A stretch of DNA of 32,000 nt from Candidatus Methylomirabilis oxygeniifera (GTDB lineage Bacteria > Methylomirabilota > Methylomirabilia > Methylomirabilales > Methylomirabilaceae): the NCBI GenBank assembly GCA_000091165.1, contig FP565575.1, positions 270,001-302,000 of the forward strand, given 5' to 3'. Positions 785 to 24,131 of this stretch are shown piece after piece. The notes below the pieces were generated by a model. That model was not told where the DNA came from, made no database searches, and saw only the letters and a program-made list of their open reading frames with translations. The translations under genes were made by a program, and so were the position numbers. Position 1 is the first letter of the stretch. Each line of letters opens with the position of its first letter.

Positions 785-891
785 AACGCTACTAAGAAAG
801 TGGCGTGCAGGCTGCTGTAGGGCACTGAGACGGTATGTGCATTGGCGATGCTGCATGAGAGGCTATGGCTGCCGGGGAGAGGAGGACGAGT

Positions 892-1791
892 ATGATCCGT
901 TATAAGGGCGCGAAACGGTGGTTCCTACAAGGGTGCCTTACAGCGTCTTTGCTCCTCACGGTCATGGTGCGACCGGGTACGGCGGTGATGCAGTCGGATA
1001 TCCACATCTCGGACAATGGAACCGTGTATTGGGCGCAGCGCAACGACGGTTCTTCCGGGAAGGTGCGGGTGACCACCGTCGGTCTTGGGGCCAGCACCGG
1101 CGCGATCAATACGAGCGCAGCGCTGGCGCAGGATGGGACGCTGACCGCCAGCGGAACGGTGAATCCGTTGTTTGCGCTTGGCAATGTGCGGCGGACCGGA
1201 ATCTTTGCGTGCACCATTCCGGGAACGTTCGATCCGTCCGCTAATTCAGGGAATGGATCGTGGAATGTGGGTGGATCTGTGATCAACGGCTTTAGTGATG
1301 TGCCAAACCTGACCGATCTCTCCAACAACTTGGGTGGGGTTCCATCCGCTCAAACCGGAGTGAATCAGTTCGGATTCAACACTGCCACCCCAACGACCTC
1401 TATCGCAAAGGGTGCCCCAACCCCTTCTGACGGGTTTACGCTGAACACCGGTGAATGCGTGATCTACGTCCTCAATAGTGCATCTTTGCTCACCCCGGGG
1501 ACCACGCTGACCGGTGCAGGCGCGTCTGCCGGATTCATGGATAACTTCATTACCGGGACCGTGCAGTTGACGACCGGGAAGACGGATACTGTGGCGAAGT
1601 TCCTTCCCACCACCACCACGACGACGACTACGACGACGACGACTACGACGACGACCACCACGACCACCACGACGACGACAATCCCCCCGCCGACGATTCC
1701 AACGACTGGAGAGTGGGGGATGATGATTTTCGGGGCGGCGCTGCTCGGATTTATGGCCTGGATGACCCAAGCCAGGCGGTCGATTAAGTAG
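892..1791 (+). CDS. secreted protein with 24xThr linker and IPTLxxWG / IPTL-CTERM-type C-terminal sorting signal
   Basis: ATG 892 follows a strong SD, GGAGAGGAGGA (876-886); the track ORF starts at in-frame ATG 865. The N-terminus has a signal-like segment, KRWFLQGCLTASLLLTVMV. The C-terminus IPTTGEWGMMIFGAALLGFMAWMTQARRSIK is a motif, a hydrophobic helix and a basic tail. A strong terminator follows. Confidence 0.85.
   Translation: MIRYKGAKRWFLQGCLTASLLLTVMVRPGTAVMQSDIHISDNGTVYWAQRNDGSSGKVRVTTVGLGASTGAINTSAALAQDGTLTASGTVNPLFALGNVRRTGIFACTIPGTFDPSANSGNGSWNVGGSVINGFSDVPNLTDLSNNLGGVPSAQTGVNQFGFNTATPTTSIAKGAPTPSDGFTLNTGECVIYVLNSASLLTPGTTLTGAGASAGFMDNFITGTVQLTTGKTDTVAKFLPTTTTTTTTTTTTTTTTTTTTTTTTIPPPTIPTTGEWGMMIFGAALLGFMAWMTQARRSIK
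1609..1680 (+). repeat. imperfect ACS trinucleotide run encoding 24 consecutive Thr
   Basis: There are 24 Thr codons (acc/acg/act/aca mix) from 1609 to 1680, directly followed by IPPPTIPTTGEWG. Confidence 0.95.
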
Positions 1792-1820: not shown

Positions 1821-1853
1821 AAAAAGCGGGGCGATACGCCCCGCTTTTTCTTT
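1821..1853 (+). terminator. Rho-independent terminator (A-tract/T-tract flanked, possibly bidirectional)
   Basis: aaaaaGCGGGGCG-ata-CGCCCCGCtttttcttt: an 8-bp GC stem (1826-1833 / 1837-1844), a 3-nt loop, then a T-run. Confidence 0.85.
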
Positions 1854-1890
1854 GTCAACCGTTCTTGATCTCCACAGTCCCATTCCGCCT

Positions 1891-4023
1891 ATGGTAGCGT
1901 CAACCGATGAACCGGAGATGGACACACGCCGTGGACGGATCGAGGTTATCAGTACCGCTGTTGTCCTCGCCCTGATCTACGGAGTACTCCTTTGGCAGTT
2001 CCCGCCCTCGCTTCTCCTGCTGCCGACGATCACAGCCGGCGGCGACACACTCTTTCACTATGTGACGGCTGCCTACCTCAGGGATCATCTGTTGGCGCAT
2101 GGCCGGATTGTGGGCTGGATGCCCGGTAATCTGGCCGGTTTTCCGCTGTTCCTCTTTTACTTTCCGCTGGCCTTCCTCGCCGTTTGCGGGCTGAGCCTTA
2201 TCGCTCCATTCCCGGTTGCGTTTAAACTGGGGACCGTTGCCGGGACCTTCGCGCTTCCGTTGGCTTCGTACGTGGCCCTCCGCTGGATCGGTCTGGCTTA
2301 CCCGACGCCTGCTATCGGAGCGCTATTCACGCTCTGTTTCCTCTTCATCGAGAGCAACACCATGTGGGGCGGCAATATCCCCAGCACACTGGCGGGAGAG
2401 TTCGCTTACAGCTTCTCCCTTCCCCTGCTGGTCCTCTTCCTCGGCGCCCTGTACCGGGGCGTGGAGAAGCGGCGGCACGCATGGTTGGGCGCGGGACTGC
2501 TCGCGCTGGTGGGTTTCAGCCACGGTTACACCCTGGTCATGGCGGCGGGGGCGGGGCTGTTCTTCCTCGTGTTCAATCGCGATATGTGGGCGACGCTCTG
2601 GTACCTCTTGCGGGTCTATGGGATCGGGGGGCTGCTGCTGGGTTTCTGGATCCTGCCGCTGGTCATGTCTTTGCCCTACACCTCCGGATGGCCCATCAGT
2701 TGGCAATTTACCTCGTTGCTTGAGCCGCTCCCGATCATCCTTTGGCCGATCGTCGCCGCCGCGATTGTCACGATCGCCGCCGCGTTCCGGCGACCGAAGC
2801 GTCCCGCGTCGAACCAGGGCCAGGAATGGATGAGCAAGGTCCATTACCTGAGCTTTCCGGTCGCGCTTGGGATCCTGCTGTTTTCGTTGGCCGCCCGCCT
2901 CAATCTGGTAGACATCCGATTCCTTTCGATCGCCCAGTTCTTCATCACGCTGGTCGCGGCCGCCGGATTCGGAAAAGCCTGGCCGCGTCTCGCGCCCCGT
3001 CTCCGGGCGATCGCCCTGGTAGTCCTCGCCCTCATCACTATCCTGTGGGCGCTCTCTCAGCAATCCTACAGCCGTGACTGGATTGTCTCAAACTATCGCG
3101 GGATGGAGTCGGCTCCGCTGTGGAAGCAATACCGGGTTCTGAACGAGGTGCTGAAGGGAGGGCCCCAGGATCCGCGGATCATGTATGAGCATTCCGGGAA
3201 GCACGAAGGCGCCGGTACCGTCCGCGCCTTCGAGGCCCTCCCGCTGTTTTCCGGCCGGTCCACGCTCGAAGGGGCGTACATGCAGTCCTCGCTGAGCGCG
3301 CCGTTCATCTTTGATCTCCAGTCAGAGCTGACGCCGACGCCATCGTGCCCCTTTCCGCAGTATCGGTGCAGCCGTTTCGATCCCGATCGGGCTGTTCGCC
3401 ATCTGGTCCTCTTCAACGTGAAGGGGTTCATCGCCGTCTCGTCGGAGGTCAAGGCGGCCCTGGATGCCCATCCGGCCTTCCGGCGGGCATTGAATGTTGA
3501 GCCGTACGCGATCTATGAGGTTCTTCCAGGTAATGGGCGGTATGTCGTCCCGCTCTCGTTCCAGCCGACCGTCTCCGGTGCGAAGGACTGGAAACGTCTG
3601 GCCTATGACTGGTTCCAGCGACCGGAATGGGCGGAAGTTCCACTGATTTTCCCACAAGGCGATGAGCCGCCACCCACGGATGCGGTTGCCTTCCATGGGC
3701 TGGAGCAGGGACCGGTCAAAGTCCCGTTGGCCGATGCCTGCCATGTTGAGGAGACGGTCCTTGAGCAGGAGATTCGCTTCCAGACCGATTGCCCGGGCCG
3801 GCCGCATCTGGTCAAGGTGTCCTATCATCCCAAGTGGAGGGCGGAGGGCGCCGATCGGATTTACCTGACGTCGCCGGCCTTTATGGTGGTCTATCCTGCG
3901 GACAAGCAGGTCAGGCTGGCGTTCGGCGACCGTTGGCCCGATACGCTTGGTTGGATTGCGACGGCGTTGGGTCTGCTGTGGCTGCTCGCAGAGGCAAGGA
4001 CGGCAGCCCCGCGACGCCGCTGA
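1891..4023 (+). CDS. large polytopic membrane protein, YfhO-like / GT-C-fold glycosyltransferase-like
   Basis: About 12 hydrophobic segments over some 420 aa are followed by a soluble domain of about 290 aa and a terminal TM. The C-terminal signature ...LVKVSYHPKWRAEGADRIYLTSPAFMVVYPADKQVRLAFG...LGWIATALGLLWLL matches the YfhO-type end. I prefer ATG 1891, because the track TTG 1852 lies inside the upstream terminator. Confidence 0.6.
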   Translation: MVASTDEPEMDTRRGRIEVISTAVVLALIYGVLLWQFPPSLLLLPTITAGGDTLFHYVTAAYLRDHLLAHGRIVGWMPGNLAGFPLFLFYFPLAFLAVCGLSLIAPFPVAFKLGTVAGTFALPLASYVALRWIGLAYPTPAIGALFTLCFLFIESNTMWGGNIPSTLAGEFAYSFSLPLLVLFLGALYRGVEKRRHAWLGAGLLALVGFSHGYTLVMAAGAGLFFLVFNRDMWATLWYLLRVYGIGGLLLGFWILPLVMSLPYTSGWPISWQFTSLLEPLPIILWPIVAAAIVTIAAAFRRPKRPASNQGQEWMSKVHYLSFPVALGILLFSLAARLNLVDIRFLSIAQFFITLVAAAGFGKAWPRLAPRLRAIALVVLALITILWALSQQSYSRDWIVSNYRGMESAPLWKQYRVLNEVLKGGPQDPRIMYEHSGKHEGAGTVRAFEALPLFSGRSTLEGAYMQSSLSAPFIFDLQSELTPTPSCPFPQYRCSRFDPDRAVRHLVLFNVKGFIAVSSEVKAALDAHPAFRRALNVEPYAIYEVLPGNGRYVVPLSFQPTVSGAKDWKRLAYDWFQRPEWAEVPLIFPQGDEPPPTDAVAFHGLEQGPVKVPLADACHVEETVLEQEIRFQTDCPGRPHLVKVSYHPKWRAEGADRIYLTSPAFMVVYPADKQVRLAFGDRWPDTLGWIATALGLLWLLAEARTAAPRRR

Positions 4024-4455: not shown

Positions 4456-4645
4456 GACTGTTGAATTGTAGATTGTCGATTCGCGTTCTGCCGCACATTG
4501 GCAGCGTCGCGGTTACGGTGAAGATGTTCTCATGATCAGGATCTTTATCTTTGGCTGACAGATTGTAGACGCAGCGTCACGGCCCCCGGTTGTGGCCGCC
4601 CTCAGGAAGGGGCTGCCGACCCGTGGGCAGAAGGGAGGGGCTTGT

Positions 4646-5734: not shown

Positions 5735-5831
5735 GGCTGATAGATCGAAGGCGTAGTTTCACGGTCCTCGGTTGTTGCCGCCCTCGCGAAGAAAGGGTCG
5801 CCAAACCGTGGGACGACAAGGAGGATCGAGT

Positions 5832-11019: not shown

Positions 11020-11024
11020 GCGCG

Positions 11025-13241
11025 TTACCCCTGACCGGCAGACCTGGACGGGCCGGCCATGCGCGCGTCCAGTCCGGCGAATCGAGATCCGACAAGAACG
11101 GTCAGCAGCAAGGTCACCGCTCCCAGCCAGAGCAGTCCGGTCTTGTACCATGGCGGTCGGTAGATTGCCGTGAGGCGATGCGGACCTGCCGACACCTCGA
11201 CCCCGATGAAGCTCGGTGACACCATGAACGGGCGCGCGTCGCGTCCATCAATGGTGACGTGCCAGTTCGGATGGTAGGTCGTCTTGATGGCGATGGTCGC
11301 GGCGTGGGCGCACTCCACCTGCAGATCGAGCCTGCCGGGCAGGATCTGCTCCTCTGTGATTCTCCCGCCGTCCGGGCATCCCGGGCCGGACGCGTCGAAG
11401 TATCCCTCGTCTGGTGAGGGGTACTCGTATCGAATGAACCGCCCGGCCGCAGGATCAGGGCCCTCGAGCCACCGGCGATTCTCGTCGAGCAGGGTCGCCT
11501 GAGAATCGGTGCGAATCCCCCTGACGATATTGACAAACCCGGCGTATCCATCGGTCTTTGCCTCGTAGAGCGTGTAACGGCCGGTCCTTTCCAGCGGTCG
11601 CAGGAACTCCGGCATGGCGAGACCGGCCGGTGCGACCACGTAGCGCGCATTAAAGACATTGTAGTGGGCCGGATCGCGATCGTCAAAATGCCAGATCATG
11701 TCGGAGTTGAGGGAGAAACCCGAATACGGGGGCGATACCGCGGGGATCCGGTAAAAGGTCAGCAGGTCGTAGAAGTGCAGGTCTCCAAACTGTACCGTCT
11801 TCCCCCAGTTGGCCCGCAGGCCGACATAGGTTCGTCCTGGCGGCAGATCTTTGAGCGCCGCTAAGATCGTTCTGGCGTCGGCGTCGGCGTCGACGGCACG
11901 CTGTGTACGTTCCATCCACTGTGCATTCAGCGCGTAAAAGTGTCGTCTCTCTGCTAACGGCGGGATCAACAGAACGACAACGGCACATACGCCGACGGCC
12001 CCGCGCCAACGGGTGACGGCAGGGCTGAGCAGATGCCACAACCACTCTCCTCCCAGTCCGATCAGCATGATCGCCCCGATATTCACGCCGCCGATGAAGC
12101 GATGATACAGCATGCCTTTATGCATGGGGATGAGGTCGGCCAGCGCTCCCCACGTGACCCGTCCAAAAAACAGCAACAGCCACATCCCGAAGATCGACAG
12201 GCCGAGCGCTCCGTGCCGGCCTCGACGCGCGACGGCGGAGGCGATTCCAAGCGCCAGGAGCGCCGTCAGGACCGGAAGGCGGTCGAAATCCAGCAGGTCC
12301 CCGTTGATCAACCAGCCCAGAATGGCGTGAGCCCCGAAGGAGTCGTACTTCCAACGCTGAAGGTACGGGCTGAAACCCAGGAACGGATTGAACAGTACGA
12401 AGGGGAGCCAGAAGTACGACGTGATGACGGCCGAGACTCCCGCGACGATCAGTAATCGCATGATGCGCAATCGGACGTTGTCCCGCCGTATGCCGACCAG
12501 AAGGGAGGCGACCATCGTCAGCCCCATGATAAAGCTATACAGCAGATGCGATAGAACCAGTGTGGATGCGGCAACGATCGCACCGAGGTAGCCTTGACCC
12601 GTTCTCATAACATGGATCAGACAACCGAGGCTCAGAAACGACAGATGCATCGCCCACAGTTGACTGTACATCCCGAAGCCGCGCCAGATGTAGCTGTCAT
12701 ATTCGAACCCGTAATGATGATCGGCTGAGATCAATGTGGCGCTTGCTGCGGCGACCCCTGCTGCGATCGACGAGAATCCGATCCGACGCATCGACCAGTA
12801 GACGGACAGCGGAAACCCGACCAGGAGCAGATATCGGATGAGATTGAAAAGAGTCAGCAGTTCGAATTGCCCCAGGAGGATGCGGTGCAGCAGCACGACG
12901 GTCAGATGCGGCAGATGCTGATAGGTGCTGGCAATCGGGAACCCAAGCTCAAGCTCAGGGTTCCAGTGATCGATGAGATTGTCCCCCGTCGCCCACGCCC
13001 GGCTGATACCTTGAATGAGCAGAAAATGCACGGCATTATCGTTCAGGCTGGGGATTGGGCGCGAGAGCTCAGGCAGCAGTGTCACGGCATTGAAGAGGAT
13101 TGGGATCAGCAGAAGAAGGACCACGACGCAAGAGCTGTTGTAGGTGACAGCATCGTTGGAAACACGACAGTCAATCCGGTCCGATATAAAAGCGCGGCGT
13201 ATGCTCATTGTCATATACAAAGAATCAGGTCTTGCATTCAC
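11025..13241 (-). CDS. large polytopic membrane protein, YfhO-like / GT-C-fold glycosyltransferase-like (second copy of this architecture)
   Basis: About 450 aa of TM segments are followed by a soluble domain and a terminal TM. The C-terminal signature ...IAIKTTYHPNWHVTIDGRDARPFMVSPSFIGVEVSAGPHRLTAIYRPPWYKTGLLWLGAVTLLL is strongly YfhO-like. The start may be GTG 13241, ATG 13214 or ATG 13208. Confidence 0.65.
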   Translation of the reverse strand: MNARPDSLYMTMSIRRAFISDRIDCRVSNDAVTYNSSCVVVLLLLIPILFNAVTLLPELSRPIPSLNDNAVHFLLIQGISRAWATGDNLIDHWNPELELGFPIASTYQHLPHLTVVLLHRILLGQFELLTLFNLIRYLLLVGFPLSVYWSMRRIGFSSIAAGVAAASATLISADHHYGFEYDSYIWRGFGMYSQLWAMHLSFLSLGCLIHVMRTGQGYLGAIVAASTLVLSHLLYSFIMGLTMVASLLVGIRRDNVRLRIMRLLIVAGVSAVITSYFWLPFVLFNPFLGFSPYLQRWKYDSFGAHAILGWLINGDLLDFDRLPVLTALLALGIASAVARRGRHGALGLSIFGMWLLLFFGRVTWGALADLIPMHKGMLYHRFIGGVNIGAIMLIGLGGEWLWHLLSPAVTRWRGAVGVCAVVVLLIPPLAERRHFYALNAQWMERTQRAVDADADARTILAALKDLPPGRTYVGLRANWGKTVQFGDLHFYDLLTFYRIPAVSPPYSGFSLNSDMIWHFDDRDPAHYNVFNARYVVAPAGLAMPEFLRPLERTGRYTLYEAKTDGYAGFVNIVRGIRTDSQATLLDENRRWLEGPDPAAGRFIRYEYPSPDEGYFDASGPGCPDGGRITEEQILPGRLDLQVECAHAATIAIKTTYHPNWHVTIDGRDARPFMVSPSFIGVEVSAGPHRLTAIYRPPWYKTGLLWLGAVTLLLTVLVGSRFAGLDARMAGPSRSAGQG

Positions 13242-13543: not shown

Positions 13544-13625
13544 ACGAGGGATTTCGCAGCATTCGCGGAACCAGGGTGTCTGTTAACCGCGTGACACGCC
13601 CTACATGATAGGGGAGGAGGTGGCT

Positions 13626-14576
13626 ATGAGATCGACCGTCCGAACTGTTCTGATCTGTTTGGTGGTGAGCCTTGGCGTCATCGTGAGCGCCGAGAAGAGC
13701 TGGGCCGGATTTGTGTCCGGGGGGTCCCGACTCATCTATTACTACAGTCAGCGTTCCCTCGTGAACCCGGGGGCCGGGAGCGGCACGGGTGCTACGATCC
13801 TGGCCGTGAAGAACAATTCGAGCGATGCAACCAAGGTGCAGATGAAGATCTTCAACGGCTCGACCTGCGCCGGCTTTGGTCCGGTGACCTTCGATCTGCC
13901 CGGAAATCAGAGCCTTCGGATCAATGTCTCGGATCATGTCTCGGCGACCCCGTTCCCGGAAGGGTGGGTGGATCTGTATGCGGTCAATTCGGGAGGCACG
14001 CCGATCCGATGGGATTACCTGACCGGGAAGTTCACGGTACTCGATTTTGGAGGGTCCTCCACGACTGTGGCGATCTCTCAGGCGGCCGCCATGTTCTCCG
14101 ACGCGAATCGGTCGAGCGACCCTCAGGGCGGGGTCATCGCCGATAACACCGACGCGCGGACGTGGGCGCCGCACCTTCAATCCGTCGACTTTTGGGCCAC
14201 AGGGGGGCCGTTTAACATCAGCGATCGTCTGGTGGTGGTTCCGGTCTCCAGTGTGCCTGGGACGGCCCCGGTCGCCTCTACCAGCGGGATCGGTCTCTCC
14301 TTCAAGACCTTGGCGGGTGCGGAGACACTGAATACGAGCGCCACCACTTCCTGCATGCTGGCCTCGTCTCTCCCGAGCCTTCACCCGGGTTTCTCCGCCT
14401 CCTACCCGAATGGCGCCACCGTGACGGATGGGGGCACTCTCAATCTCGTCGCTGACTCCTCCGGCACCAATAAAGGCAATGCCGGGTGGCTGTTCGAGAT
14501 GGCGACGTCCCCGCTGCTTCTGGGTGTGCATCCGATACAAGCATGGGCGGAGTTGGCGGTGGACGGTCACGAGTAG
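13626..14576 (+). CDS. secreted protein of unknown function (orphan), immediately upstream of the exosortase-family gene
   Basis: ATG 13626 follows GGGGAGGAGG (13611-13620). The signal peptide is MRSTVRTVLICLVVSLGVIVSAEKSWA. Third-position GC is high in this frame. I recognise no family and see no C-terminal TM sorting tail. Confidence 0.8.
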   Translation: MRSTVRTVLICLVVSLGVIVSAEKSWAGFVSGGSRLIYYYSQRSLVNPGAGSGTGATILAVKNNSSDATKVQMKIFNGSTCAGFGPVTFDLPGNQSLRINVSDHVSATPFPEGWVDLYAVNSGGTPIRWDYLTGKFTVLDFGGSSTTVAISQAAAMFSDANRSSDPQGGVIADNTDARTWAPHLQSVDFWATGGPFNISDRLVVVPVSSVPGTAPVASTSGIGLSFKTLAGAETLNTSATTSCMLASSLPSLHPGFSASYPNGATVTDGGTLNLVADSSGTNKGNAGWLFEMATSPLLLGVHPIQAWAELAVDGHE

Positions 14577-14631
14577 TCGTATCGGGCGCTCCGGATTGTC
14601 CGCTCGTCCTCACACACCTGCAACTCGCGAA

Positions 14632-14670
14632 CGCCTTCCCAATGGGCTGTGGAAGCCCATTGGGAAGGCG
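14632..14670 (+). other. perfect 17-bp inverted repeat (hairpin, 5-nt loop) between the orphan secreted-protein gene and the exosortase gene
   Basis: CGCCTTCCCAATGGGCT-gtgga-AGCCCATTGGGAAGGCG. There is no clean T-run after it. The right arm contains the SD-like GGGAAGG just before TTG 14671. Confidence 0.9.
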
Positions 14671-15645
14671 TTGCTGTATGGGCTCGGGCTCATGTTGGTG
14701 CAATGGGGGCTCGAGCGGGGTACGTTTGTCGCCATCCTCACCGATCGCCTGGCGCAGGGCGTGCTGGTTGGTCTGCATCTGTTGGGTGTGCCGGCGAGGC
14801 TTGACGGGCTGGTGCTCCACGCCGGCGCGCTGAGTCAGCCGGTCTCGGCAAGCTGTCTGGGCCTGATCGCGGTGACCGGCTATCTCTCCGGCCTCCTCGC
14901 CGTACCGGCCGACTGGACGACGCGCTGGCGCGGGATCCGGCGCGACCTGCCGTTGCTGGTTCTTGGGAATGCGATTCGACTGTCGGCGCTCGGGATCCTC
15001 ATCACCGTATCTGTCTCAGCCTTTCAGTTTGCGCATGCGATTCTCATGGGGGCGGTTGCGCCGCTGGCCCTGATCGGGCTGTGGGGCTTCTGGTTCTACA
15101 AGGACCTGGGCGCGCTGTCGGCGTATCCCTGGCGCTTCGCCAGAGACGTGTCCCTCGCGCTGCCTCTGGCAATCGGGCTTTGGTGGCTGCTGCTTGACCC
15201 GTATGCGGTCGGGCTGTCGGTGGTGATCAAGGCGGCCCTGAGCGGCCTCGTCGGGATGCCGATTGTCGGGACCGGGGTGGTGGAGGACGGCTTCAAACGC
15301 CTCCTCGACTTTCAATTGCCGGACGGCGGTTTCCGCATCGAGATGGGCGGCCGCAGCCTGGCCCTCGCTCCGTTGATCGCCTTGATCGGCGCCTCGCCCA
15401 TCCCCTGGACGCGGCGGATTGGGCTGGGAGGTCTCGGTCTGACGATCCAGTTCGGGCTCCATGCCATGGAGGTGGTCGGACTGGTTCTCCTGGGTCGGAT
15501 CGCTCCTCCGGTGGTCCCGGCGGTCGAGGCGCTTTCGGATTACCTCGCCCTTGCCTCCGGTCCGTTCTTGTGGCTGCTGCTCGCGGCTCCGTCTTCAGCG
15601 TGGTGGGCGCTTGAGGGAGAGGGCCGTCGCGCGCGATCTGTCTGA
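14671..15645 (+). CDS. exosortase/archaeosortase-family transpeptidase-like membrane protein (candidate XrtH-type, IPTLxxWG-CTERM-specific), short N-terminus and long C-terminal polytopic extension
   Basis: The motif series matches exosortases. The pre-Cys segment is LAQGVLVGLHLLGVPARLDGLVLHAG...VSASCLGLIAV. The Arg in LGNAIRLSALGIL lies 41 residues after the Cys, the same spacing as ArtA C173/R214. This is followed by FAHAILMG. The start is uncertain: TTG 14671, ATG 14692 or TTG 14596. The track start 14428 overlaps the upstream gene and is not TM-like. Confidence 0.65.
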   Translation: MLYGLGLMLVQWGLERGTFVAILTDRLAQGVLVGLHLLGVPARLDGLVLHAGALSQPVSASCLGLIAVTGYLSGLLAVPADWTTRWRGIRRDLPLLVLGNAIRLSALGILITVSVSAFQFAHAILMGAVAPLALIGLWGFWFYKDLGALSAYPWRFARDVSLALPLAIGLWWLLLDPYAVGLSVVIKAALSGLVGMPIVGTGVVEDGFKRLLDFQLPDGGFRIEMGGRSLALAPLIALIGASPIPWTRRIGLGGLGLTIQFGLHAMEVVGLVLLGRIAPPVVPAVEALSDYLALASGPFLWLLLAAPSSAWWALEGEGRRARSV

Positions 15646-15700: not shown

Positions 15701-15730
15701 TTGCCTTTTGCTCTACAAGAAGGGTATAGT
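15701..15730 (+). promoter_or_regulatory. candidate sigma70 promoter (TTGCCT-18-TATAGT)
   Basis: Lies in the 134-nt gap upstream of the radical SAM gene. The -10 TATAGT is at 15725-15730. Confidence 0.3.
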
Positions 15731-15779: not shown

Positions 15780-17141
15780 ATGGCGGCAACGGTGACACGA
15801 AAGGTTCTGCTCGTCAATCCGAGCTGGGATGGGCTGGTAAGCCGAAAGGGACGCCGGTTTAATCGCACCTGGCCTCCCCTTGATCTCCTGAATTGCGCGG
15901 CGCTGCTGGAGCAGGACGGGCTGAGCGTCGGCCTCATCGATGCCCGCGCCGTGCCCACCACGCCGGAGACGATTCGAGACGCCGCAGCGCGACACGATCT
16001 GGTCTTCGTGACCTCGTCGCCGATCGACCGGTGGCAATGCCCCAACCTCGATCTGGGCCCATTCCTGGCCGTTACACACCTGGTGGAACCCGACAAGCTG
16101 TACGTAATGGGGACGCATGGGACCGTTGCGCCTGGAGAGCTGCTTCATATGACGCAGGCGCGAGCCATCGTCCGTGGCGAGCCTGAGCCGGCGGTCCGAG
16201 CGCTTTGTGAGGGCAAAGACCCTTCTGAGGTCCCGGGTGTGACCTATCTGCAAGAGGGCACAACTATCCATAATCCGGAAGGGAACCCCGTGGATCTGAC
16301 GACCCTGCCGATGCCCGCCTTTCATCTCCTCGACCTTCGCAACTACCGGTACGAAATTCTCGGCGGAAGATTTGCCCTGCTTGAGACGACGCGCGGCTGT
16401 CACCACCGGTGCCATTTCTGCCTTCTCAAGATGTACGGCAAAGGCTACCGCAAGAAAGACCCCGAGCAGGTTGTTCATGAGGTCACACATCTGGTTCGAG
16501 AAGCGGGAGCCAAGACAGGATACTTCATCGATCTGGAGTTCACCGCGGTCCGTGACGACGTCCGGGATCTGTGTGAGCGACTGGTGTCGGCCGGGTTGCC
16601 CTTCGAGTGGGCGTGCCAGACCAGGGCCGATTATGTGGACGGGCCGCTTCTGAAGCTGATGAAGCGCGCCGGCTGTCGGCTGATCCACTTTGGCGTTGAA
16701 AGCGGCTCGCCCCGTATCCTGGCTGCAACGAATAAGCGGATTACCCTTGAGCAGATCGAACGCGGAATTGCGGAGACGAAGCAGTCAGGGATCGATCAAC
16801 TGTGTTTCTTCATGTTCGGCTTCCCGGGTGAAACCGCCGGGGATATGGAGGCGACGATCGCGTTCGCCAAGCGGCTGAGCCCCACCTATGCGTCATTTCA
16901 TGCCGTGACCCCCTACATGGGCACGAAGCTGTATGAGATGAGCGGCTCCTCGGAGCTGTTCCCTGAAGTGCTGAGCAAGGAGCACGACCCCCTCATCCTT
17001 CAGGCGATCGCCAACCGGGCCTTTCGTGAGTTTTACCTGCGGCCGGCAATGCTCTGGTCCAGGGTGCGTAGGGTGGACGTTCGTCTTTGGCGCAGGCAGG
17101 CCGCACTGTTCTGGCACTACGTGCGACCAGCCTTGACCTAG
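15780..17141 (+). CDS. B12-binding-domain radical SAM enzyme (class B)
   Basis: N-terminal Rossmann-like B12-binding region (KVLLVNPSWD...GLIDARAVP...DLVFVTSSP). CX3CX2C motif in TTRGCHHRCHFCLL. Downstream GCRLIHFGVESGS and FMFGFPGET. Confidence 0.85.
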   Translation: MAATVTRKVLLVNPSWDGLVSRKGRRFNRTWPPLDLLNCAALLEQDGLSVGLIDARAVPTTPETIRDAAARHDLVFVTSSPIDRWQCPNLDLGPFLAVTHLVEPDKLYVMGTHGTVAPGELLHMTQARAIVRGEPEPAVRALCEGKDPSEVPGVTYLQEGTTIHNPEGNPVDLTTLPMPAFHLLDLRNYRYEILGGRFALLETTRGCHHRCHFCLLKMYGKGYRKKDPEQVVHEVTHLVREAGAKTGYFIDLEFTAVRDDVRDLCERLVSAGLPFEWACQTRADYVDGPLLKLMKRAGCRLIHFGVESGSPRILAATNKRITLEQIERGIAETKQSGIDQLCFFMFGFPGETAGDMEATIAFAKRLSPTYASFHAVTPYMGTKLYEMSGSSELFPEVLSKEHDPLILQAIANRAFREFYLRPAMLWSRVRRVDVRLWRRQAALFWHYVRPALT

Positions 17142-17153
17142 GCTCTTTCCGTC

Positions 17154-17906
17154 ATGCCCCAAGACCCGCTTGGCACTCGCCGGCCCCGGGTTCCACTGAC
17201 GTTCATTATCCCGGCCTATAACGAAGAAGCCATCGTTGCCGCCAACGTCGACCGGCTCAGGTGCTACCTGAAAGACCGGGAGATTACGACGTATGAAATG
17301 CTCCTGGTCAGCAACGGCTCGACCGACCGGACCGTCGAGATCGCCAGGGCAAGCGCAGCAGGCCGCGTGGACCTCACGGTCATTGAGTTGCCGCGGCGCG
17401 GCGTGGGCCGCGCATTCAAGGCCGGGATGGCGCGCGCGCATTATGACCGGGTAGTGTGCCTCGATCTGGATCTTACCATCGATCTCGACTTCATTACGGC
17501 TGCGGCGGAAGGACTCGACACGGCGGACATCGTCATCGGTTCCAAGCAGACCGGGGGGCAGCAGCGCTCGTGGATCCGACGGCTGGCAAGCGCGGCGTTT
17601 ATCGTCTGCACGCGCCGGTTACTTCACCTCACGTTTACGGACTACTCGATCGGCGCCAAGGCGTTTCGGACCGCCTCTATACGGCCATATCTCCCCCATC
17701 TTGCCGATCAGAGCGCCTATATCCTGCAACTGATCGCCTGGGGGCATCGCGACGGCGTCGCCATTGCTGAGATTCCGGTCTGGTGCGACGATCGGAGAAA
17801 GAGTCGTTTCAACCTCATCCACGAGGGCTTCTATCGCTTCGGCAGCCTGTTTGTGCTGTGGCTTCAGGAACGGCTGTGTTGGAGGAGAGGGATCGACGGG
17901 CGATGA
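17154..17906 (+). CDS. GT2 glycosyltransferase (Dpm1-like, soluble)
   Basis: PLTFIIPAYNEEAIVAANVDRL...MLLVSNGSTDRT...RGVGRAFKAGM...CLDLDLTID. It starts 12 nt after the radical SAM stop. Its TGA overlaps the next ATG (ATGA at 17903-17906). Confidence 0.85.
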   Translation: MPQDPLGTRRPRVPLTFIIPAYNEEAIVAANVDRLRCYLKDREITTYEMLLVSNGSTDRTVEIARASAAGRVDLTVIELPRRGVGRAFKAGMARAHYDRVVCLDLDLTIDLDFITAAAEGLDTADIVIGSKQTGGQQRSWIRRLASAAFIVCTRRLLHLTFTDYSIGAKAFRTASIRPYLPHLADQSAYILQLIAWGHRDGVAIAEIPVWCDDRRKSRFNLIHEGFYRFGSLFVLWLQERLCWRRGIDGR

Positions 17907-19690
17907 AGGCTCACCGGAGGCTGCGCGTGCGGTCAATATTCTCTTCTTTTCCGACACACGTCTTGCTTGAGAAGTGCATTGTATTGGGAGCATTGTTTGC
18001 GATTGCACTCTCTTGTTCGTTTCATGTGCTGCACTATTGGTTTCTTTACGATGATCCCGCTGCTATCGTCTATTCGACGAAATCCTTGAACGATATATTT
18101 TTCTCCAATGACGCATATGTATATGGGTTTTATGCGCCGTTGTTAGCGCTTATCTTTAAGCCTGACGTTCTCTTTTTTGGGATCCAACCATTACCGTACC
18201 GTATTCACAATCTCATGATTCTCGTCTCGATAGCTTTTGTGGTCTACCAGATACTCAGGCAGTATACGGATAAATTCTCATCTGCCGTCTCTGCGATGAT
18301 TGTTCTATGTGCAACCCCCTCGTTTATCTGTGTGATTTGGATAACGCTCAGGCAATATCTGTACCCCATGCTCTTTTCTTTAATCGCGATCTATCTCTAC
18401 ATAAAATACACACCCGATCCGAAACGCGACACGTACGTGTTCCTTACCATACTGGTTCTGAGTGAATTAAGCTTTATGGGCAAAGAACAATTTATGACTT
18501 TGCCTTTTGTCCTTTTGGTCCTCTCGAAAGAGAACTTTAAGAACAGATGTCTCAAGACATATCCTTACTTTCTCTTGCTTGCCCTGCATTTTTTGCTTCG
18601 ATGGTATGTGTTGGGAAGTATGGGGGGATATTTAGGAGTTACTTACAACCCTTTGGTTTACCTGAAAACGGTCTTTACATCCATCTTCACCACCTCAGAG
18701 ATTTTATTTGGATCTCAGTGGTTGGTAGCTGTTTTGTTGTTGCCGTTCTTGTTACAGCCCGACAAGTGTATGCGATTGGTTCTCTTGTGGGTAGCGACCC
18801 TCGCTGTGTCTTTTCTTGGTATGTCTGTATATCCTTCGGCAGACACCTATCGCTATTGGTTCATTGCCGCAGTTCTGTTTTCCTTTATGATGGGGTTTGG
18901 CTCGGCTGTCATCAAAAACCCTCTGCTTAGGGGATTGTACATCCTGGCGGCAGTCATTCCGTTCTTCATTCACAGCTCGAAAATAAACGAGGAAATCACG
19001 GTCTTGTTTCAACGTGAATCGTCTATAGCCTATAAGACGTCACAATCTATGCTTGATGAGAGATACCGCAACGCAGTGATGATGTTTCCGGACAGCCCGT
19101 ATACTCATTCCGGGTATATATATTCGATGCAAAACGCATATCAGAGGGTCCTGGGAGTCGAAGCCCTCCCTACGTTCTATCCCTTTGAACTGCTGGCATT
19201 TTATCCGGACATATTACAAGATTTCGATGGCGTGTATGAAATAACACCACACGAAATTATCGATATTACACAGTCTATAAAAAAGAGATCGGATCTTTTT
19301 TTGGCAGCGTTGACCGATCAGAAACCGGAATTCGGACTCTTGCAGAGCGGAGAAGAGTTAGCGGTAAGTCTCAAGTGCAGATCCGGCAGATCGGTCACCT
19401 CGTTTATCATAGAGCAAGAGCAGTTTGCCGATAAGCAGCGCGTGAGTAGAAACGTTCTTCCTTACCTTGAGAGATTGAACTTGAGCAACACCATAAAAAA
19501 GAGCGGGAACGCCAGACTGGTGCCGATAGAGGAGATTTCATATAAGAAGAAAACGTGGTATTTCGGACGAGAACGCATTCCGGATGCTACGCTATTGATA
19601 ACAAATTTGTGCAGTGATCTATCGGGAAACAATACGCGTTTATCGGATGTTTTGTATATTCCTTTGGCGAAGAGGTTTCACATAAGCTAA
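17903..19690 (+). CDS. low-GC polytopic membrane protein, PMT/TMTC-like GT-C glycosyltransferase without TPR
   Basis: ATG 17903 is in an ATGA overlap. About 400 aa of TM segments have the loop-1 motif WFLYDDPAAIVYS followed by FYAPLLALIF...FGIQPLPYRIHNLMILV, parallel to FAFDDHLLVETN...YRPIR...FGLNPSGFRAFNILY in the 6931 gene. The C-terminal domain is soluble, about 200 aa. Hand-counted lines inside give 35-45% G+C, against 67-70% in the flanks. Confidence 0.65.
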   Translation: MKAHRRLRVRSIFSSFPTHVLLEKCIVLGALFAIALSCSFHVLHYWFLYDDPAAIVYSTKSLNDIFFSNDAYVYGFYAPLLALIFKPDVLFFGIQPLPYRIHNLMILVSIAFVVYQILRQYTDKFSSAVSAMIVLCATPSFICVIWITLRQYLYPMLFSLIAIYLYIKYTPDPKRDTYVFLTILVLSELSFMGKEQFMTLPFVLLVLSKENFKNRCLKTYPYFLLLALHFLLRWYVLGSMGGYLGVTYNPLVYLKTVFTSIFTTSEILFGSQWLVAVLLLPFLLQPDKCMRLVLLWVATLAVSFLGMSVYPSADTYRYWFIAAVLFSFMMGFGSAVIKNPLLRGLYILAAVIPFFIHSSKINEEITVLFQRESSIAYKTSQSMLDERYRNAVMMFPDSPYTHSGYIYSMQNAYQRVLGVEALPTFYPFELLAFYPDILQDFDGVYEITPHEIIDITQSIKKRSDLFLAALTDQKPEFGLLQSGEELAVSLKCRSGRSVTSFIIEQEQFADKQRVSRNVLPYLERLNLSNTIKKSGNARLVPIEEISYKKKTWYFGRERIPDATLLITNLCSDLSGNNTRLSDVLYIPLAKRFHIS

Positions 19691-20457
19691 TGGTGTCCCT
19701 CTTGAGAGGCCGTTCTACCGACATGGATGATGAGCAGATTCAACTCAGCGTGGCGATTCCCACATACAATGAGGCGAACCGGATCGGCCCGTCGCTCCAC
19801 CGGGTGTGGGACTATTTGCGGTCCCGATACGGGGCGGGCGGATTCGAGATGATTGTGGTGGATGACGGATCGCGCGACAGCACGGTCGCCGTTGTGGAAC
19901 AATTCGGGATGCGCGCGCCGGAGTTGCGACTGGTCCGCTTCTCACGGAACCGAGGCAAGGGCGCCGCCGTTCGGGCCGGCATGATAGCGGCCACAGGGAA
20001 GGCCGTGCTGTTCTCGGATGCGGACCTCTCCACACCGATCGAGGATGTGGAGGGCGCGTTAAGGCTGCTGGCGGACGGCGGAGATGTCGTGATCGGCTCG
20101 CGCGCGCTGCCTGGATCGCTGATTCTGGTGCGTCAGCATCCGTTGCGCGAGTCGATGGGACGACTGTTCAATCGCCTTATCCGGGTCCTCCTTCGGATCC
20201 CGTTTCGAGATACGCAGTGCGGATTCAAGCTGTTTCGGCGCGAGGCGGCGCATGCGATCTTCCAGCGCGCACGTATCGACGGCTTTGCCTTCGACGTCGA
20301 GGTTATCCTCATCGCGATGCAGTTGGGATATACCGTACGCGAGATGCCGGTACACTGGAGCAATGATCCGGCGAGTAGGGTGACCCTGAGTCGCCACCCC
20401 GCACAGATGATCGCCGATCTCTGGCGGATCAGGACCGGGCGCATGAGCGGCCGATGA
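19690..20457 (+). CDS. GT2 glycosyltransferase, dolichyl/polyprenyl-phosphate beta-glucosyltransferase (Alg5)-like
   Basis: LSVAIPTYNEANRIGPSL...MIVVDDGSRDST...SRNRGKGAAVRAGM...FSDADLSTPIED...VIGSR. ATG 19690 overlaps the upstream TAA (TAATG). An alternative start is ATG 19723. Confidence 0.85.
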   Translation: MVSLLRGRSTDMDDEQIQLSVAIPTYNEANRIGPSLHRVWDYLRSRYGAGGFEMIVVDDGSRDSTVAVVEQFGMRAPELRLVRFSRNRGKGAAVRAGMIAATGKAVLFSDADLSTPIEDVEGALRLLADGGDVVIGSRALPGSLILVRQHPLRESMGRLFNRLIRVLLRIPFRDTQCGFKLFRREAAHAIFQRARIDGFAFDVEVILIAMQLGYTVREMPVHWSNDPASRVTLSRHPAQMIADLWRIRTGRMSGR

Positions 20458-20534
20458 CGTCTTACCGGGTCGATGCGGTTGAGGTGGGACGTGTCCTCCG
20501 CTTTCGTCGCGCTCCTGGTCTGGCCGGCCGGTCG

Positions 20535-21623
20535 CTAGGTTTTGATCCTGAGTACGGAGGCGAGACCGGCAGTGGTGAACAGGACGTTAGGCAGCCAGGC
20601 CGCGACCAGCGGGGGCAGGACGTCGCCCCGTCCCAGAGAAATACTGAAGGAGTTGAGGATCGAGTAGCAGACGGCTGCTACCACGCAGGCGCCCGTCCAG
20701 GCCATCACGCCTCGCTTACCGGTGCGAAGGGCGAAGGCGATCCCAATGAAGGCCATGACGAGATTCGTGAAGGCCGTAGAGCCCTTTGCGGCCAGGTCCA
20801 CCTGATACCGGACAGAGCTCACCCCGGCTTTGGCCAGTCTCTCAATATACTCCCGAAGCTCAGACGAGGTCATCTCTTCGGCCTCACGCACCACATGGGC
20901 GAGATCCTCGGGTTTTTCTTCGAGGTAGAGCGTGAGGTGTGTGAACGGATCAACCCGGAAGGTCCCATCAGGCTTGGTCCGGGATATTTCGCCGTTCTGA
21001 AGCCGCCACTGTCCGTCTTGCCATCTGGCCTCCTTTGCATCGATCCTTCTCGCCAGTCTGAAATCCGGTGAGAGTTCAAAGACGGTCAATCCTCGGATGC
21101 TGCCCGATGCCGCCTCCAGCAGCGAGATATGCAAAAACCGGTTACCTTTGGCCCGGTACCAGATATCGTTGTTTTTGGTGCGCTGGAAGGGGGAGACCTT
21201 CTGCACCTTCACCCGATAGGCATCCAGCGCACGCTCGTTCATTCGAGGAACAATCGACTCGCCGAGAATTAAGGCGGCAAAGCTGACGACGAGGCCAAGA
21301 ACCAATGGCGGAACAACGATGCGGAAGATGCTCAGATGACCCATTTTCATGGCAAGCAGTTCATTGTGCCTCGCCATTTTCCCAAGGCTGAACAGGGCGG
21401 CGAGGAGTACTGCCACCGGCATGACCTGGAACCCGAACCATGGCAGCCTGTAGATGTAATACTGGATCACCACCACGCCGGATACGTCAAGGAAGCGGGA
21501 GAGGCGATCGAATAGGTCTACGATGACGGAGAGCGCGAGGAAGATCACCAGTGAGAAGGCACAGATTCTGAGAAACTCTTTCGCAAGATACCGATCCAGG
21601 ATTCGCATGGGAACGGTCAGCAT
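20535..21623 (-). CDS. lptG: LPS export ABC transporter permease LptG (YjgP/YjgQ family)
   Basis: The N-terminus MRILDRYLAKEFLRICAFSLVIFLALSVIVDLFDRL, the central periplasmic beta-jellyroll region and the 6-TM layout fit the family. It lies directly downstream of the lptF-like paralog. Confidence 0.75.
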   Translation of the reverse strand: MLTVPMRILDRYLAKEFLRICAFSLVIFLALSVIVDLFDRLSRFLDVSGVVVIQYYIYRLPWFGFQVMPVAVLLAALFSLGKMARHNELLAMKMGHLSIFRIVVPPLVLGLVVSFAALILGESIVPRMNERALDAYRVKVQKVSPFQRTKNNDIWYRAKGNRFLHISLLEAASGSIRGLTVFELSPDFRLARRIDAKEARWQDGQWRLQNGEISRTKPDGTFRVDPFTHLTLYLEEKPEDLAHVVREAEEMTSSELREYIERLAKAGVSSVRYQVDLAAKGSTAFTNLVMAFIGIAFALRTGKRGVMAWTGACVVAAVCYSILNSFSISLGRGDVLPPLVAAWLPNVLFTTAGLASVLRIKT

Positions 21624-23027: not shown

Positions 23028-23993
23028 ATGGGGATTGTGGTGGTTATGATCGGCGCCGTCATGCTGGCGGTGACCTTTATTGCGGTGATGAAAAAATCTA
23101 CTCGAGAAGGCGTAGGCGCCTGGCTTGTGGAAAAGCCTCTCCGTATCTGGTGGCTTCCGTGTCTGCTGCTTATGCTTTACAGTATGGTCAGTGCGGCGGT
23201 CAGCCAGTGGAGCTTCAATGCCTTTACGCTGTTAGCGGTCTATTTTGGATTACCGACATTGCTGCTCTACTTGACCGGACCAAAATCCGGCACTGCACTG
23301 ACCGGGCGAGACCTGGCCATTAATTTTGCCGTGGTGTTGTGGATCTGGTTACTGATTGAGTTGAAGATTGTGAATACAAATTGGCTTCGCGTGCAGTTCG
23401 GCGGAGCCAAGTCGACTGCACTACCGTTGGGCGTCTATGCGGCTATCATTTATGCGCTTGTTGTTCTTTCCGGGTGGAGAAGATTTGATCTGAAGTGCGA
23501 TCTTTCCGTGAAAAGGTCCGACGTGCTCCCGACGGCGGCAACCTTCGGAATTTTAGCCATCACGCTGTTGTTGATTACGCTTTCTACCGGGCTGACCACG
23601 GTGGGAATCGCCAAGGTGGTGAGGCTGAATCCGCTTGGGGTTCCCCTGATTATCGCCGTGCCGGTCGCGGTATTCATCGCCGTTCCGATGATCTTTATGA
23701 GTATCGGAGTGGTTGAAGAAATACTGTTTCGCGACGCGATTCAGAATCTTCTTCGGCATCGTCTTGGGCCGATCTGTGCGCTGGTCGTTGCCTCTATCGT
23801 GTTTGGGCTGGCGCATGTGAATAAGAGAGCGCTAGGATTTGACGTGCCGAACTGGCCATACGCCGGGGTAGCCGCTATTGCCGGGTTAGGCTATGGATTT
23901 GTATTCTGGAAGACCAACTCTGTCATCGCATCTGCAACGGTCCACGCCATGGTAGACGCGATGTGGGTCCTCTTTCTGAGGGGCGGGAAATGA
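23028..23993 (+). CDS. CPBP-family (CAAX-protease-like) glutamic-type intramembrane protease
   Basis: The motifs are VVEEILFRDAI (EExxxR), FGLAHV (FxxxH) and ATVHAMVDAMW (HxxxD/N), in an 8-TM protein. The SD GCGGAGG precedes ATG 23028. Confidence 0.85.
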   Translation: MGIVVVMIGAVMLAVTFIAVMKKSTREGVGAWLVEKPLRIWWLPCLLLMLYSMVSAAVSQWSFNAFTLLAVYFGLPTLLLYLTGPKSGTALTGRDLAINFAVVLWIWLLIELKIVNTNWLRVQFGGAKSTALPLGVYAAIIYALVVLSGWRRFDLKCDLSVKRSDVLPTAATFGILAITLLLITLSTGLTTVGIAKVVRLNPLGVPLIIAVPVAVFIAVPMIFMSIGVVEEILFRDAIQNLLRHRLGPICALVVASIVFGLAHVNKRALGFDVPNWPYAGVAAIAGLGYGFVFWKTNSVIASATVHAMVDAMWVLFLRGGK

Positions 23994-24131
23994 GCGACCG
24001 GTGCTTGCAGGACGTGAGGCGGTTGCCGGGGGGAGGGTGATTCGCGAGGGAAGAAAAGGCGAGTGAGCGATGGTTCCCAATATTGTTCAGTGGCAGATCT
24101 GAACCTCGAAGAGGGAAAGGAGCCAGACATA

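Follow-up and report, generated by a model that had tools for sequence, protein, structure and literature searches.

Why should a gene for a radical S-adenosylmethionine (SAM) enzyme be packed together with genes for glycosyltransferases that resemble the makers and users of lipid-linked sugars, and with which of these neighbors does its product work? The question is raised by 4 genes in a 32,000-nucleotide stretch of the Candidatus Methylomirabilis oxygeniifera genome (assembly GCA_000091165.1, contig FP565575.1, positions 270,001 to 302,000 of the forward strand), called the window here, in which all coordinates below are counted. On the + strand, the genes encode a radical SAM enzyme (rSAM, 15780..17141, 453 aa) with an N-terminal Rossmann/B12-like domain, from an unnamed cross-phylum family; a family 2 glycosyltransferase similar to Dpm1, ArnC, and GtrB (GT2a, 17154..17906, 250 aa), which is the conserved partner downstream of rSAM; a 595-aa TMTC/PMT_2-like membrane glycosyltransferase of the GT-C type (GT-C595, 17903..19690); and a second family 2 enzyme similar to DPMS, GtrB, and PgfS (GT2b, 19690..20457, 255 aa). 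An initial annotation had read these as one operon in which rSAM may C-methylate the sugar or lipid-linked intermediate that the GT-C then transfers. Our analysis divides the array differently: rSAM and GT2a are a conserved pair whose usual GT-C partner appears to be a PF10131 protein encoded elsewhere in the window, and GT-C595 is an acquired gene in a variable position. We read the cassette as parts of 2 periplasmic glycosylation modules of the three-component type, set in a Methylomirabilota surface-glycoprotein island, an interpretation that we regard as evenly poised between right and wrong.

Conservation of the rSAM-GT2a pair

At a limit of E<=1e-10, 1197 of the scored candidates belong to the rSAM family, and 184 species-level loci were confirmed in the genome collection. 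Its members occur in anammox Planctomycetota, Acidobacteriota, Desulfobacterota, Elusimicrobiota, Omnitrophota, WOR-1, Magasanikbacteria, Aenigmatarchaeota, and Altiarchaeales. Neighbors were counted by tblastn and by unbiased clustering of the neighboring genes in fetched loci, 66 of which had enough flank for this purpose, with 42 wide-flank loci serving for counts within 10 kb. A GT2a ortholog (38-46% identity) lies directly downstream of rSAM in 29 of the 66 loci, and a family 2 glycosyltransferase (GT2) of any kind lies directly up- or downstream in 39, at gaps that are mostly between -90 and +12 nt. This adjacency is beyond chance, since dozens of species-level loci from different phyla show it. 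Bacterial and archaeal phyla retain direct rSAM-GT2a adjacency even where the proteins are only 45-55% identical, and persistence at that level of divergence usually points to functional or physical coupling.

Two subsets of the family have neighborhoods of their own. Scalindua and an uncultured bacterium (loci including L046 and L066) carry 4 to 5 rSAM paralogs within 18 kb, and in a Bryobacterales-type subgroup rSAM occurs with a SPASM radical SAM protein, a PEMT/ICMT-like methyltransferase, an epimerase, and a GT4 glycosyltransferase, with no PF10131 protein.

The PF10131 partner and the variable slot

The second recurrent neighbor of rSAM is a PTPS_related (PF10131) membrane protein of the GT-C clan, encoded in the window at 1852..4023 on the + strand (117 bits to PF10131). 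PF10131 genes lie within 10 kb of rSAM in 18 of the 42 wide-flank loci and directly upstream of it in 12, L003, L011, and L005 being among the loci with the latter arrangement. Their products often have TPR/YfiO-like periplasmic parts, and HHpred ties PF10131 to the N-terminal GT-C region of TMTCs (PMC7801869). In 21 loci, the gene 5' of PF10131 encodes a secreted CARDB-like protein of ~280 aa with a C-terminal membrane anchor. Judged by gene order, the PF10131 GT-C, and not GT-C595, appears to be the conserved GT-C partner of rSAM. The linkage of rSAM to glycosyltransferase genes expected in the initial annotation thus extends well beyond this genome, to GT2a and to a GT-C within 10 kb, but the GT-C concerned is not the one in the cassette.

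The order rSAM, GT2a, GT-C595, GT2b is common to the window and the Methylomirabilota contigs L008 and L021, so the proposed four-gene cassette does recur; in sister Methylomirabilota, however, GT-C595 is replaced or absent. C3F12 (L003) has a surface protein with a poly-Thr tract and an IPTL-CTERM signal, followed by PF10131, rSAM, GT2a, and an exosortase gene, and the M. oxygeniifera locus L011 has PF10131, rSAM, and GT2a in the same order. In M. limnetica (L001), PF10131 is followed by an insertion sequence element, rSAM, GT2a, a gene for an 871-aa multi-transmembrane (multi-TM) protein with 2 PA14 domains, and GT2b. The position between GT2a and GT2b is a variable slot, because different membrane proteins occupy it while rSAM-GT2a remains constant: GT-C595 in the window, L008, and L021, the PA14 protein in M. 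limnetica, and nothing in C3F12.

The GT-C595 gene is compositionally foreign and was horizontally acquired. Its GC content is 0.44, and 0.53 at third codon positions (GC3), compared to 0.61-0.62 and 0.73-0.75 in the flanking genes. Counted in 200-nt windows, a trough of 0.41-0.48 spans 17900-19700 against 0.59-0.66 outside, and its steps coincide with the gene ends. Low GC as a by-product of membrane-protein composition was rejected, as GC3 is low too (0.53 versus ~0.75) and other multi-TM genes in the window are normal (GC 0.60-0.62, GC3 0.73-0.75). The ortholog in L008 is equally low in GC (0.495 versus 0.62-0.655), which places the acquisition before the split of the window and L008 lineages.

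Among 1.84 billion, the full-length GT-C595 family numbers just 43 representatives (E<=1e-30), and behind it stands a wider, mostly unmodelled GT-C superfamily (1081 at E<=1e-10). Homologs with 41-46% identity in 5 distant loci all lie with a Wzm/Wzt ABC transporter, GT4, and PIG-L, in a conserved context that also includes an acetyltransferase; an SLH protein adjoins in 2 of the 5, and a B12-type radical SAM protein is absent from all of them. A low-GC, acquired gene in a variable slot, whose homologs elsewhere do without this rSAM, is not the conserved partner of rSAM, and the role given to it in the initial annotation is not supported. One of the Wzm/Wzt loci that holds a GT-C595 homolog (L092, 10365-12941) looks unusual, as its Wzt ATPase has a radical SAM/SPASM domain fused to its N-terminus, in a protein of 858 aa.

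The radical SAM enzyme

rSAM scores 89.1 bits against Radical_SAM PF04055 (gathering score 29.5), and its CX3CX2C motif (C207/C211/C214) is invariant in 52 homologs. rSAM is 86% identical to CLG94_09000 of M. limnetica and 83% to a protein from an M. oxyfera metagenome-assembled genome. The B12-binding domain PF02310 reaches 20.2 bits, under its cut-off of 32.1, and for this reason "B12-radical SAM" is to be taken as an architectural label, with cobalamin a putative cofactor.

The top NCBIfam match is HpnJ (TIGR03471; 164.6 bits against a cut-off of 577.6, E 3.6e-48, residues 14-390 aligned), followed by BchE (139 against 481), AprD4 (NF033070; 99.1 against 500), MgmA-type proteins (97 against 360), and HpnR (51 against 650). 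Membership in the HpnJ, BchE, AprD4, PhpK, ladderane, and MgmA families was considered and rejected, all scores lying far under the curated cut-offs. The placement in an unrelated known family, away from glycosyltransferase genes in other genomes, that would have told against a role in glycosylation is not what we see, every NCBIfam score being sub-cut-off and the glycosyltransferase synteny widespread.

Among solved structures, the best sequence match is AprD4 (hmmsearch E 1.3e-39), followed by MgmA and OxsB. The AlphaFold (AF2) model of rSAM, with a predicted local distance difference test score (pLDDT) of 92.3, gives the same picture in Foldseek: full-length AprD4 at a template modelling (TM) score of 0.75 (PDB 6FD2), MgmA at 0.70/0.76, and then TsrM, OxsB, CysS, and TokK, the identity to AprD4 being only 22-23% in the structural alignment. 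The modelled layout, a Rossmann-like domain, a TIM-barrel radical SAM core, and C-terminal helices, is that of solved class B enzymes, and we accordingly describe the predicted architecture as class-B-like. Cobalamin use does not follow from this architecture, because AprD4 and ArsL have the same fold and bind no cobalamin (review PMC12931638).

What chemistry the enzyme might perform is a separate matter. Class B enzymes also carry out ring contractions, cyclisations, and thioether formation (PMC12931638), and AprD4 is a radical SAM 1,2-diol dehydratase acting on a sugar. The nearest relatives of rSAM are mostly non-methylases (AprD4, the ring-contraction enzyme HpnJ, and BchE), with the methylases MgmA and TsrM matching nearly as well. 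Of the initial annotation's argument from class B to methyltransferase, the class-B-like architecture survives, and the methylase step amounts to a prior expectation; C-methylation of a sugar or lipid-linked intermediate is not supported, as similarity favors no methylase over AprD4, HpnJ, and BchE. C-methylation would be one option among several, and radical tailoring of the GT2a product is plausible.

A Pfam scan of rSAM found no RRE or SPASM domain, both typical of peptide-modifying radical SAM enzymes. Outside the cluster motif, W85-Q86-C87-P88 of a DRWQCP sequence, C265, C299, and C342 are invariant in the family, and C279 is nearly so. DRWQCP (residues 83-88) sits in the Rossmann-like domain in the family alignment. 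Together with the 4 extra conserved cysteines, it might form an auxiliary cluster or a substrate site.

GT-C595 and the two GT2 enzymes

GT-C595 has no match in Pfam, NCBIfam, or a PDB profile search, so its identity rests on fold, motifs, and hhalign. An AlphaFold model built on 31 homologs (pLDDT 88.9, predicted TM score 0.89) has a GT-C_A fold according to Foldseek, with all of the top 20 PDB matches being GT-C proteins (STT3, PglB, AglB, ArnT, AftA, DPY19, ALG9, and PMT; E from 5e-5, TM scores 0.3-0.44). Two aspartates, D50 and D51, are invariant in the family just past the first transmembrane helix, in the first outer loop, and a "GKEQFMTLP" block has invariant K194 and Q196 and nearly invariant E195 and T199. 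O-mannosyltransferases of the TMTC type have the motifs M1 "DD" and M4 "KET(Q)xxT" (PMC7801869), to which D50-D51 and the KEQ..T block correspond. Both motifs are also aligned when hhalign compares GT-C595 with the PMT_2/DUF1736/TPR protein of the window (6931-8889; 94% probability over 385 columns). PMT_2 is reached marginally by only a few GT-C595 homologs and not by the window protein itself. GT-C595 lacks TPR repeats and has in the model a beta-rich C-terminal domain of ~200 aa. The evidence supports a PMT/TMTC-like GT-C by remote homology, not by family membership, in agreement with the initial annotation of the middle protein. A close paralogy between GT-C595 and the PF10131 protein of the window was rejected, as hhalign found no similarity between them.

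Both GT2 enzymes match Glycos_transf_2 PF00535 (GT2a 75 bits, GT2b 107 bits), and motifs read from the sequence are DLD in GT2a and DAD in GT2b. In PDB sequence searches, GT2a matches ArnC, the GtrB-like sll0501, and DPMS, and GT2b matches DPMS, sll0501, and ArnC, the best matches of the two having E values of 4e-9 to 1e-13. Every NCBIfam equivalog score is far under cut-off for both, including the best for GT2b, PgfS at 83 bits. The similarity is greatest to polyprenyl-phosphate sugar synthases, which agrees with the Dpm1-type assignment made at the outset, the acceptor lipid being putative. In L010, a GT2b homolog (37% identity) is found ~2 kb from a GT-C595 homolog.

Gene junctions and transcription

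The initial annotation had inferred tight coupling from 3 junctions, and the sequence between 15600 and 21200 does contain them: the rSAM stop TAG at 17139-17141 with the next ATG at 17154, a gap of 12 nt; ATGA at 17903-17906, with its ATG in frame with the long GT-C595 open reading frame (ORF); and TAATG at 19688-19692 between GT-C595 and GT2b. The 2 overlaps are probably not the translation starts used, because close orthologs begin further in. GT-C595 begins M/V-RSIF in the orthologs P0121 (93% identity) and P0122 (86%) and in L008, which corresponds to GTG 17927 of the window, where GGAGG stands 7 nt 5' of the codon, and the GT2b ortholog in L008 begins at the equivalent of ATG 19723 (MDDEQIQLS), a likely start that would give a protein of 244 aa. 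The true intergenic gaps are likely 12, 20, and 32 nt. The 4 genes are real and form a compact array on one strand even with these revised starts, and it is this packing that remains of the tight coupling, start codons being doubtful at 2 of the 3 junctions.

A 205-aa ORF at 20454-21071 on the + strand was rejected as a gene, being without a Pfam or NCBIfam match and antisense to a strong lptG (20535-21623). Its ATG makes another ATGA with the GT2b stop, which shows that chance can produce ATGA junctions in a sequence as GC-rich as this one.

A promoter-like site found by consensus scan, TTGCCT-18-TATAGT (15701..15730, + strand, 9/12 matches), lies in the 134-nt gap 5' of rSAM and is weak evidence for the cassette as its own transcription unit. 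The consensus terminator-like matches within the cassette, in the GT-C595 gene, are all weak, and the frequency of such sites is not above that in shuffled sequence. Convergent lptG/lptF genes adjoin the cassette on its 3' side.

A proposed pathway with two modules

The gene identities, folds, and motifs, the foreign composition of GT-C595, the rSAM-GT2a(-PF10131) synteny, and the variability of the slot are the observations from which our scheme starts. In module A, GT2a would make a polyprenyl-phosphate-linked monosaccharide on the cytoplasmic face of the membrane. Radical chemistry by rSAM would then alter this sugar on its lipid carrier, or the compound immediately before it, with C-methylation, deoxygenation/dehydration, epimerisation, and ring contraction as candidate reactions. 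A flippase would move the tailored lipid-linked sugar across the membrane, where the PF10131 GT-C would pass the sugar on to an acceptor at the cell surface, the probable one being the poly-Thr linker of the protein encoded at 865-1791. Module B would comprise GT2b and the acquired GT-C595 as a second, swappable Gtr-like module decorating a glycan or protein on the outer face; the beta-rich C-terminus of GT-C595 and the PA14 domains of its counterpart in M. limnetica suggest a glycan as acceptor. We infer every substrate in this scheme, the order of its steps, the lipid-linked state of the sugar on which rSAM acts, and the acceptor.

The acceptor suggested here is a secreted surface protein (865..1791, + strand), encoded next to PF10131 on its 5' side, in which a signal peptide and a variable domain precede 24 consecutive threonines and an IPTL-CTERM signal. 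The threonines are followed by PPPTIPTTGEWGMMIFGAALLGFMAWMTQARR, and the score to TIGR04174 IPTL_CTERM is 29.7 bits (cut-off 20.5). The same layout of signal peptide, poly-T, and IPTL-CTERM is repeated 5' of PTPS_related in L001 and L003, and other Methylomirabilota relatives share it. The family is hypervariable, with only 9 relatives among 5.8 billion proteins, most of which share the C-terminal signal only. The protein is a candidate both for an S-layer protein and for an O-glycosylation acceptor, with its poly-Thr linker as the most likely site. The architecture of the protein matches that of the published Methylomirabilis lanthanidiphila S-layer protein. The hydrophilic C-terminal tail of the Methylomirabilis S-layer protein was never observed by mass spectrometry, and glycosylation there is not excluded (PMC8671808).

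Beyond this genome, we suggest tentatively, and expect that it may well prove wrong, that the rSAM-GT2a(-PF10131) triad is a widespread undescribed pathway in which rSAM rewrites a polyprenyl-phosphate sugar (to a C-methyl, deoxy, or carbocyclic form) before a GT-C transfers it to surface or S-layer proteins, in anaerobes from the anammox bacteria, NC10, Acidobacteriota, Desulfobacterota, and candidate phyla to DPANN-type archaea.

Several observations weigh against the two-module scheme. The PF10131 gene of the window sits 11.7 kb upstream of rSAM, and PF10131 is missing near many members of the rSAM family, for example in the Bryobacterales subgroup. AprD4, the nearest structural match of rSAM, acts on a soluble substrate, and the activity of every member of the rSAM family is a predicted one. 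The long ORFs scanned in the window, L001, L003, and L008 include no recognizable flippase of the GtrA, MATE, or Wzx-like kind, small ORFs not having been searched exhaustively. As for the acceptor, a related S-layer protein had no glycan on the part that was covered (PMC8671808); homology search and cluster look-up gave no support for orthology between the 865-1791 protein and the published S-layer protein mela_00855/CBE67388, leaving a shared architecture as the link; and in other phyla, the CARDB-like membrane-anchored protein encoded 5' of PF10131 has no Thr-rich linker.

Alternative explanations

Among the alternatives to 2 glycosylation modules, the one that fares best, though we think it unlikely, is that rSAM and GT2a build a glycolipid or a lipid head group, comparable to HpnI/HpnJ (bacteriohopanetetrol cyclitol ether) or calditol synthase, or that rSAM modifies a protein, such as the adjacent secreted one, before export, with the GT-Cs as neighbors in a cell-envelope island that belong to another pathway. 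HpnJ, the top NCBIfam match of rSAM, acts after the glycosyltransferase HpnI on a lipid-linked sugar, as Cds does likewise, and the small membrane-anchored CARDB-like protein conserved in 21 loci would also suit such a role. The HpnJ score of 165 is nevertheless distant from the cut-off of 578, there are no hopanoid genes and no HpnK-like deacetylase beside the pair, and GT2a resembles polyprenyl-phosphate sugar synthases, not HpnI. The recurrent adjacent PF10131 GT-C, often with TPR/YfiO-like domains, fits donor transfer better, and the lack of an RRE or SPASM domain in rSAM counts against modification of a protein.

It is improbable, in our view, that the 4 genes form a single pathway in which the GT2s make donors, a class B rSAM C-methylates one of them, and GT-C595 transfers the methylated sugar. 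Their compact packing on one strand and the return of the same order in L008 and L021 would be expected of such a pathway. Cobalamin radical SAM enzymes do include the sugar C-methylases GenK, GenD1, and MoeK5 (review PMC12931638), MgmA and TsrM, which rank high in the structure search with rSAM, are methylases, and the S-layer O-glycan of anammox bacteria, whose genomes carry the rSAM family, has a methylated N-acetylhexosamine (methyl position unassigned). The difficulty lies with GT-C595, which is foreign, replaced in M. limnetica, and absent in C3F12 and the M. oxygeniifera locus L011 while rSAM-GT2a persists, and which in 5 distant loci never has this rSAM beside it; the best matches of rSAM are, moreover, non-methylases, and its B12-domain score is under the Pfam cut-off. 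Less probable still is that no direct biochemical link exists and rSAM acts on a nucleotide sugar or an unrelated metabolite, co-regulated with surface-glycan genes, as the soluble sugar substrate of AprD4 and the loci of Bryobacterales and CSSED10-310 might suggest (these have epimerases, SAM methyltransferases, SPASM radical SAM proteins, sulfatases, and Wzx-like proteins, without GT2a orthologs or PF10131), since rSAM-GT2a adjacency with overlapping or near-zero gaps is maintained across phyla at such low identity.

The surrounding surface-glycoprotein island

The ~11.7 kb between PF10131 and rSAM encode 2 collagen-like proteins, a PMT_2/TPR GT-C, a TPR protein, a GT2 with a YfhO-like GT-C on the other strand, a secreted protein, and an exosortase-family protein. 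The last of these is an exosortase/archaeosortase-family membrane protein (14428..15645, + strand; TIGR04178 27.9 bits against 23), whose true start is probably 3' of 14576 and whose XrtX score of 37 bits is under cut-off. Its ortholog in L008 is directly upstream of rSAM, and exosortase EpsH genes flank the rSAM-GT2a pair in L001 and L003. The window has both an IPTL-CTERM cargo and an exosortase-family protein, and processing of the one by the other is putative. Next to the exosortase-family gene lies that of a secreted Ser/Thr/Gly-rich protein of 323 aa with a signal peptide (13605..14576, + strand), in which we found no Pfam or NCBIfam match and no recognizable sorting signal; L008 has a 316-aa ortholog at the same position, with the exosortase-like gene.

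The collagen-like proteins are secreted tandem products with G-x-y repeats (4592-5683 and 5772-6866), directly 5' of the PMT_2/DUF1736/TPR GT-C at 6931-8889, and from this arrangement they look like another acceptor-transferase pair. The same pairing of collagen-like and PMT_2/TPR proteins is seen in M. limnetica (L001, 19567-21359). On the - strand at 10051-13241, a GT2 with PpgS and AglJ as best matches overlaps a 738-aa YfhO-like GT-C with a weak match to PgfM2, a third GT2/GT-C pair. The window thus has 4 GT-C-type proteins (PF10131, TMTC-like, YfhO-like, and GT-C595) and at least 4 GT2s. At 23028-25817, an intramembrane glutamic protease of the Rce1/CPBP type is followed by a BNR-repeat protein, which occurs likewise in the L003 island. 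The protease has weak matches to MrtJ and MrtS of the JDVT-CTERM and Synerg-CTERM sorting systems and may represent a second C-terminal sorting system beside the exosortase.

Significance

Much of the diversity of cell surfaces comes from periplasmic glycosylation by pairs of a GT2 and a GT-C, and to our knowledge deformylation and epimerisation are the only known ways in which lipid-linked donors are tailored. If the proposed role of rSAM is correct, C-H functionalisation by radical chemistry would bring to extracytoplasmic glycosylation a class of tailoring not described there before, and 2 large orphan families would gain a function, the rSAM clade, with at least 184 species-level loci, and PF10131. 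It could also explain unidentified or methylated sugars on the S-layer glycoproteins of Methylomirabilis and anammox bacteria, as well as why the C-terminal tail of the Methylomirabilis S-layer protein went unobserved. With its foreign, variable GT-C slot, an uncultured phylum offers a clear case in which surface-glycan specificity is exchanged in the manner of a cassette.

Comparison with known systems

As is proposed for the cassette, the GtrA/GtrB/GtrC, ArnC/ArnT, and GT136 pentofuranose systems combine a GT2 polyprenyl-phosphate sugar synthase with a GT-C. In gtr clusters, the GT-C (the serotype-specific GtrC) is the variable, horizontally exchanged component, and ArnD and epimerases are among the auxiliary enzymes that can tailor the lipid-linked sugar. 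Auxiliary enzymes that tailor lipid-linked donors before GT-C transfer, and GT-Cs with a C-terminal carbohydrate-binding module, have been described by Kelly et al. 2024 (PMC11127046). The cassette differs from these three-component systems in that no flippase was recognized, the tailoring enzyme would be a radical SAM protein, and the conserved GT-C is the uncharacterized PF10131.

In streptococci, the GtrB/PgtC2 and Pgf systems O-glycosylate Ser/Thr-rich disordered regions of extracytoplasmic, membrane-anchored proteins (PMC12041528). The likeness to Pgf extends to PgfS as the best NCBIfam match of GT2b, the weak similarity of the YfhO-like protein to PgfM2, and a run of 24 threonines in the candidate acceptor. 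Unlike the streptococcal systems, the window's proteins score far under the equivalog cut-offs, the host is a diderm of the NC10 group, the candidate acceptor carries IPTL-CTERM, and rSAM is without a counterpart.

Closer to rSAM are the HpnI-HpnK-HpnJ and Cds pathways, where gene knockouts implicate radical SAM enzymes acting on lipid-linked hexoses by mechanisms that are only proposed (PMC13459092). They would share with the cassette the sequence of a glycosyltransferase followed by a radical SAM enzyme on a lipid-linked hexose, and HpnJ is the best named family for rSAM, but the cassette has no hopanoid or glycerol dialkyl glycerol tetraether (GDGT) context and no deacetylase, and GT2a is polyprenyl-phosphate synthase-like. 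AprD4, which rSAM matches best in both sequence and structure, likewise begins with a Rossmann-like domain and acts on a sugar ring; it differs in that its substrate is a soluble aminoglycoside and that it works with a partner reductase, which the cassette lacks. GT-C595 for its part shares the GT-C_A fold and the "DD" (first extracytoplasmic loop) and "KE(Q/T)xxT" motifs with TMTCs and bacterial PMT_2-TPR proteins, from which it is set apart by the lack of TPR repeats, the beta-rich C-terminus, the absence of a Pfam match, and homologs in Wzm/Wzt loci.

No description of radical SAM tailoring in GT2/GT-C systems or on a polyprenyl-linked sugar was found in the searchable literature. That a GT2 and a GT-C can glycosylate in the periplasm, and that GT-C genes vary, is already known; the close and widespread association of such a pair with a radical SAM enzyme appears to be new.

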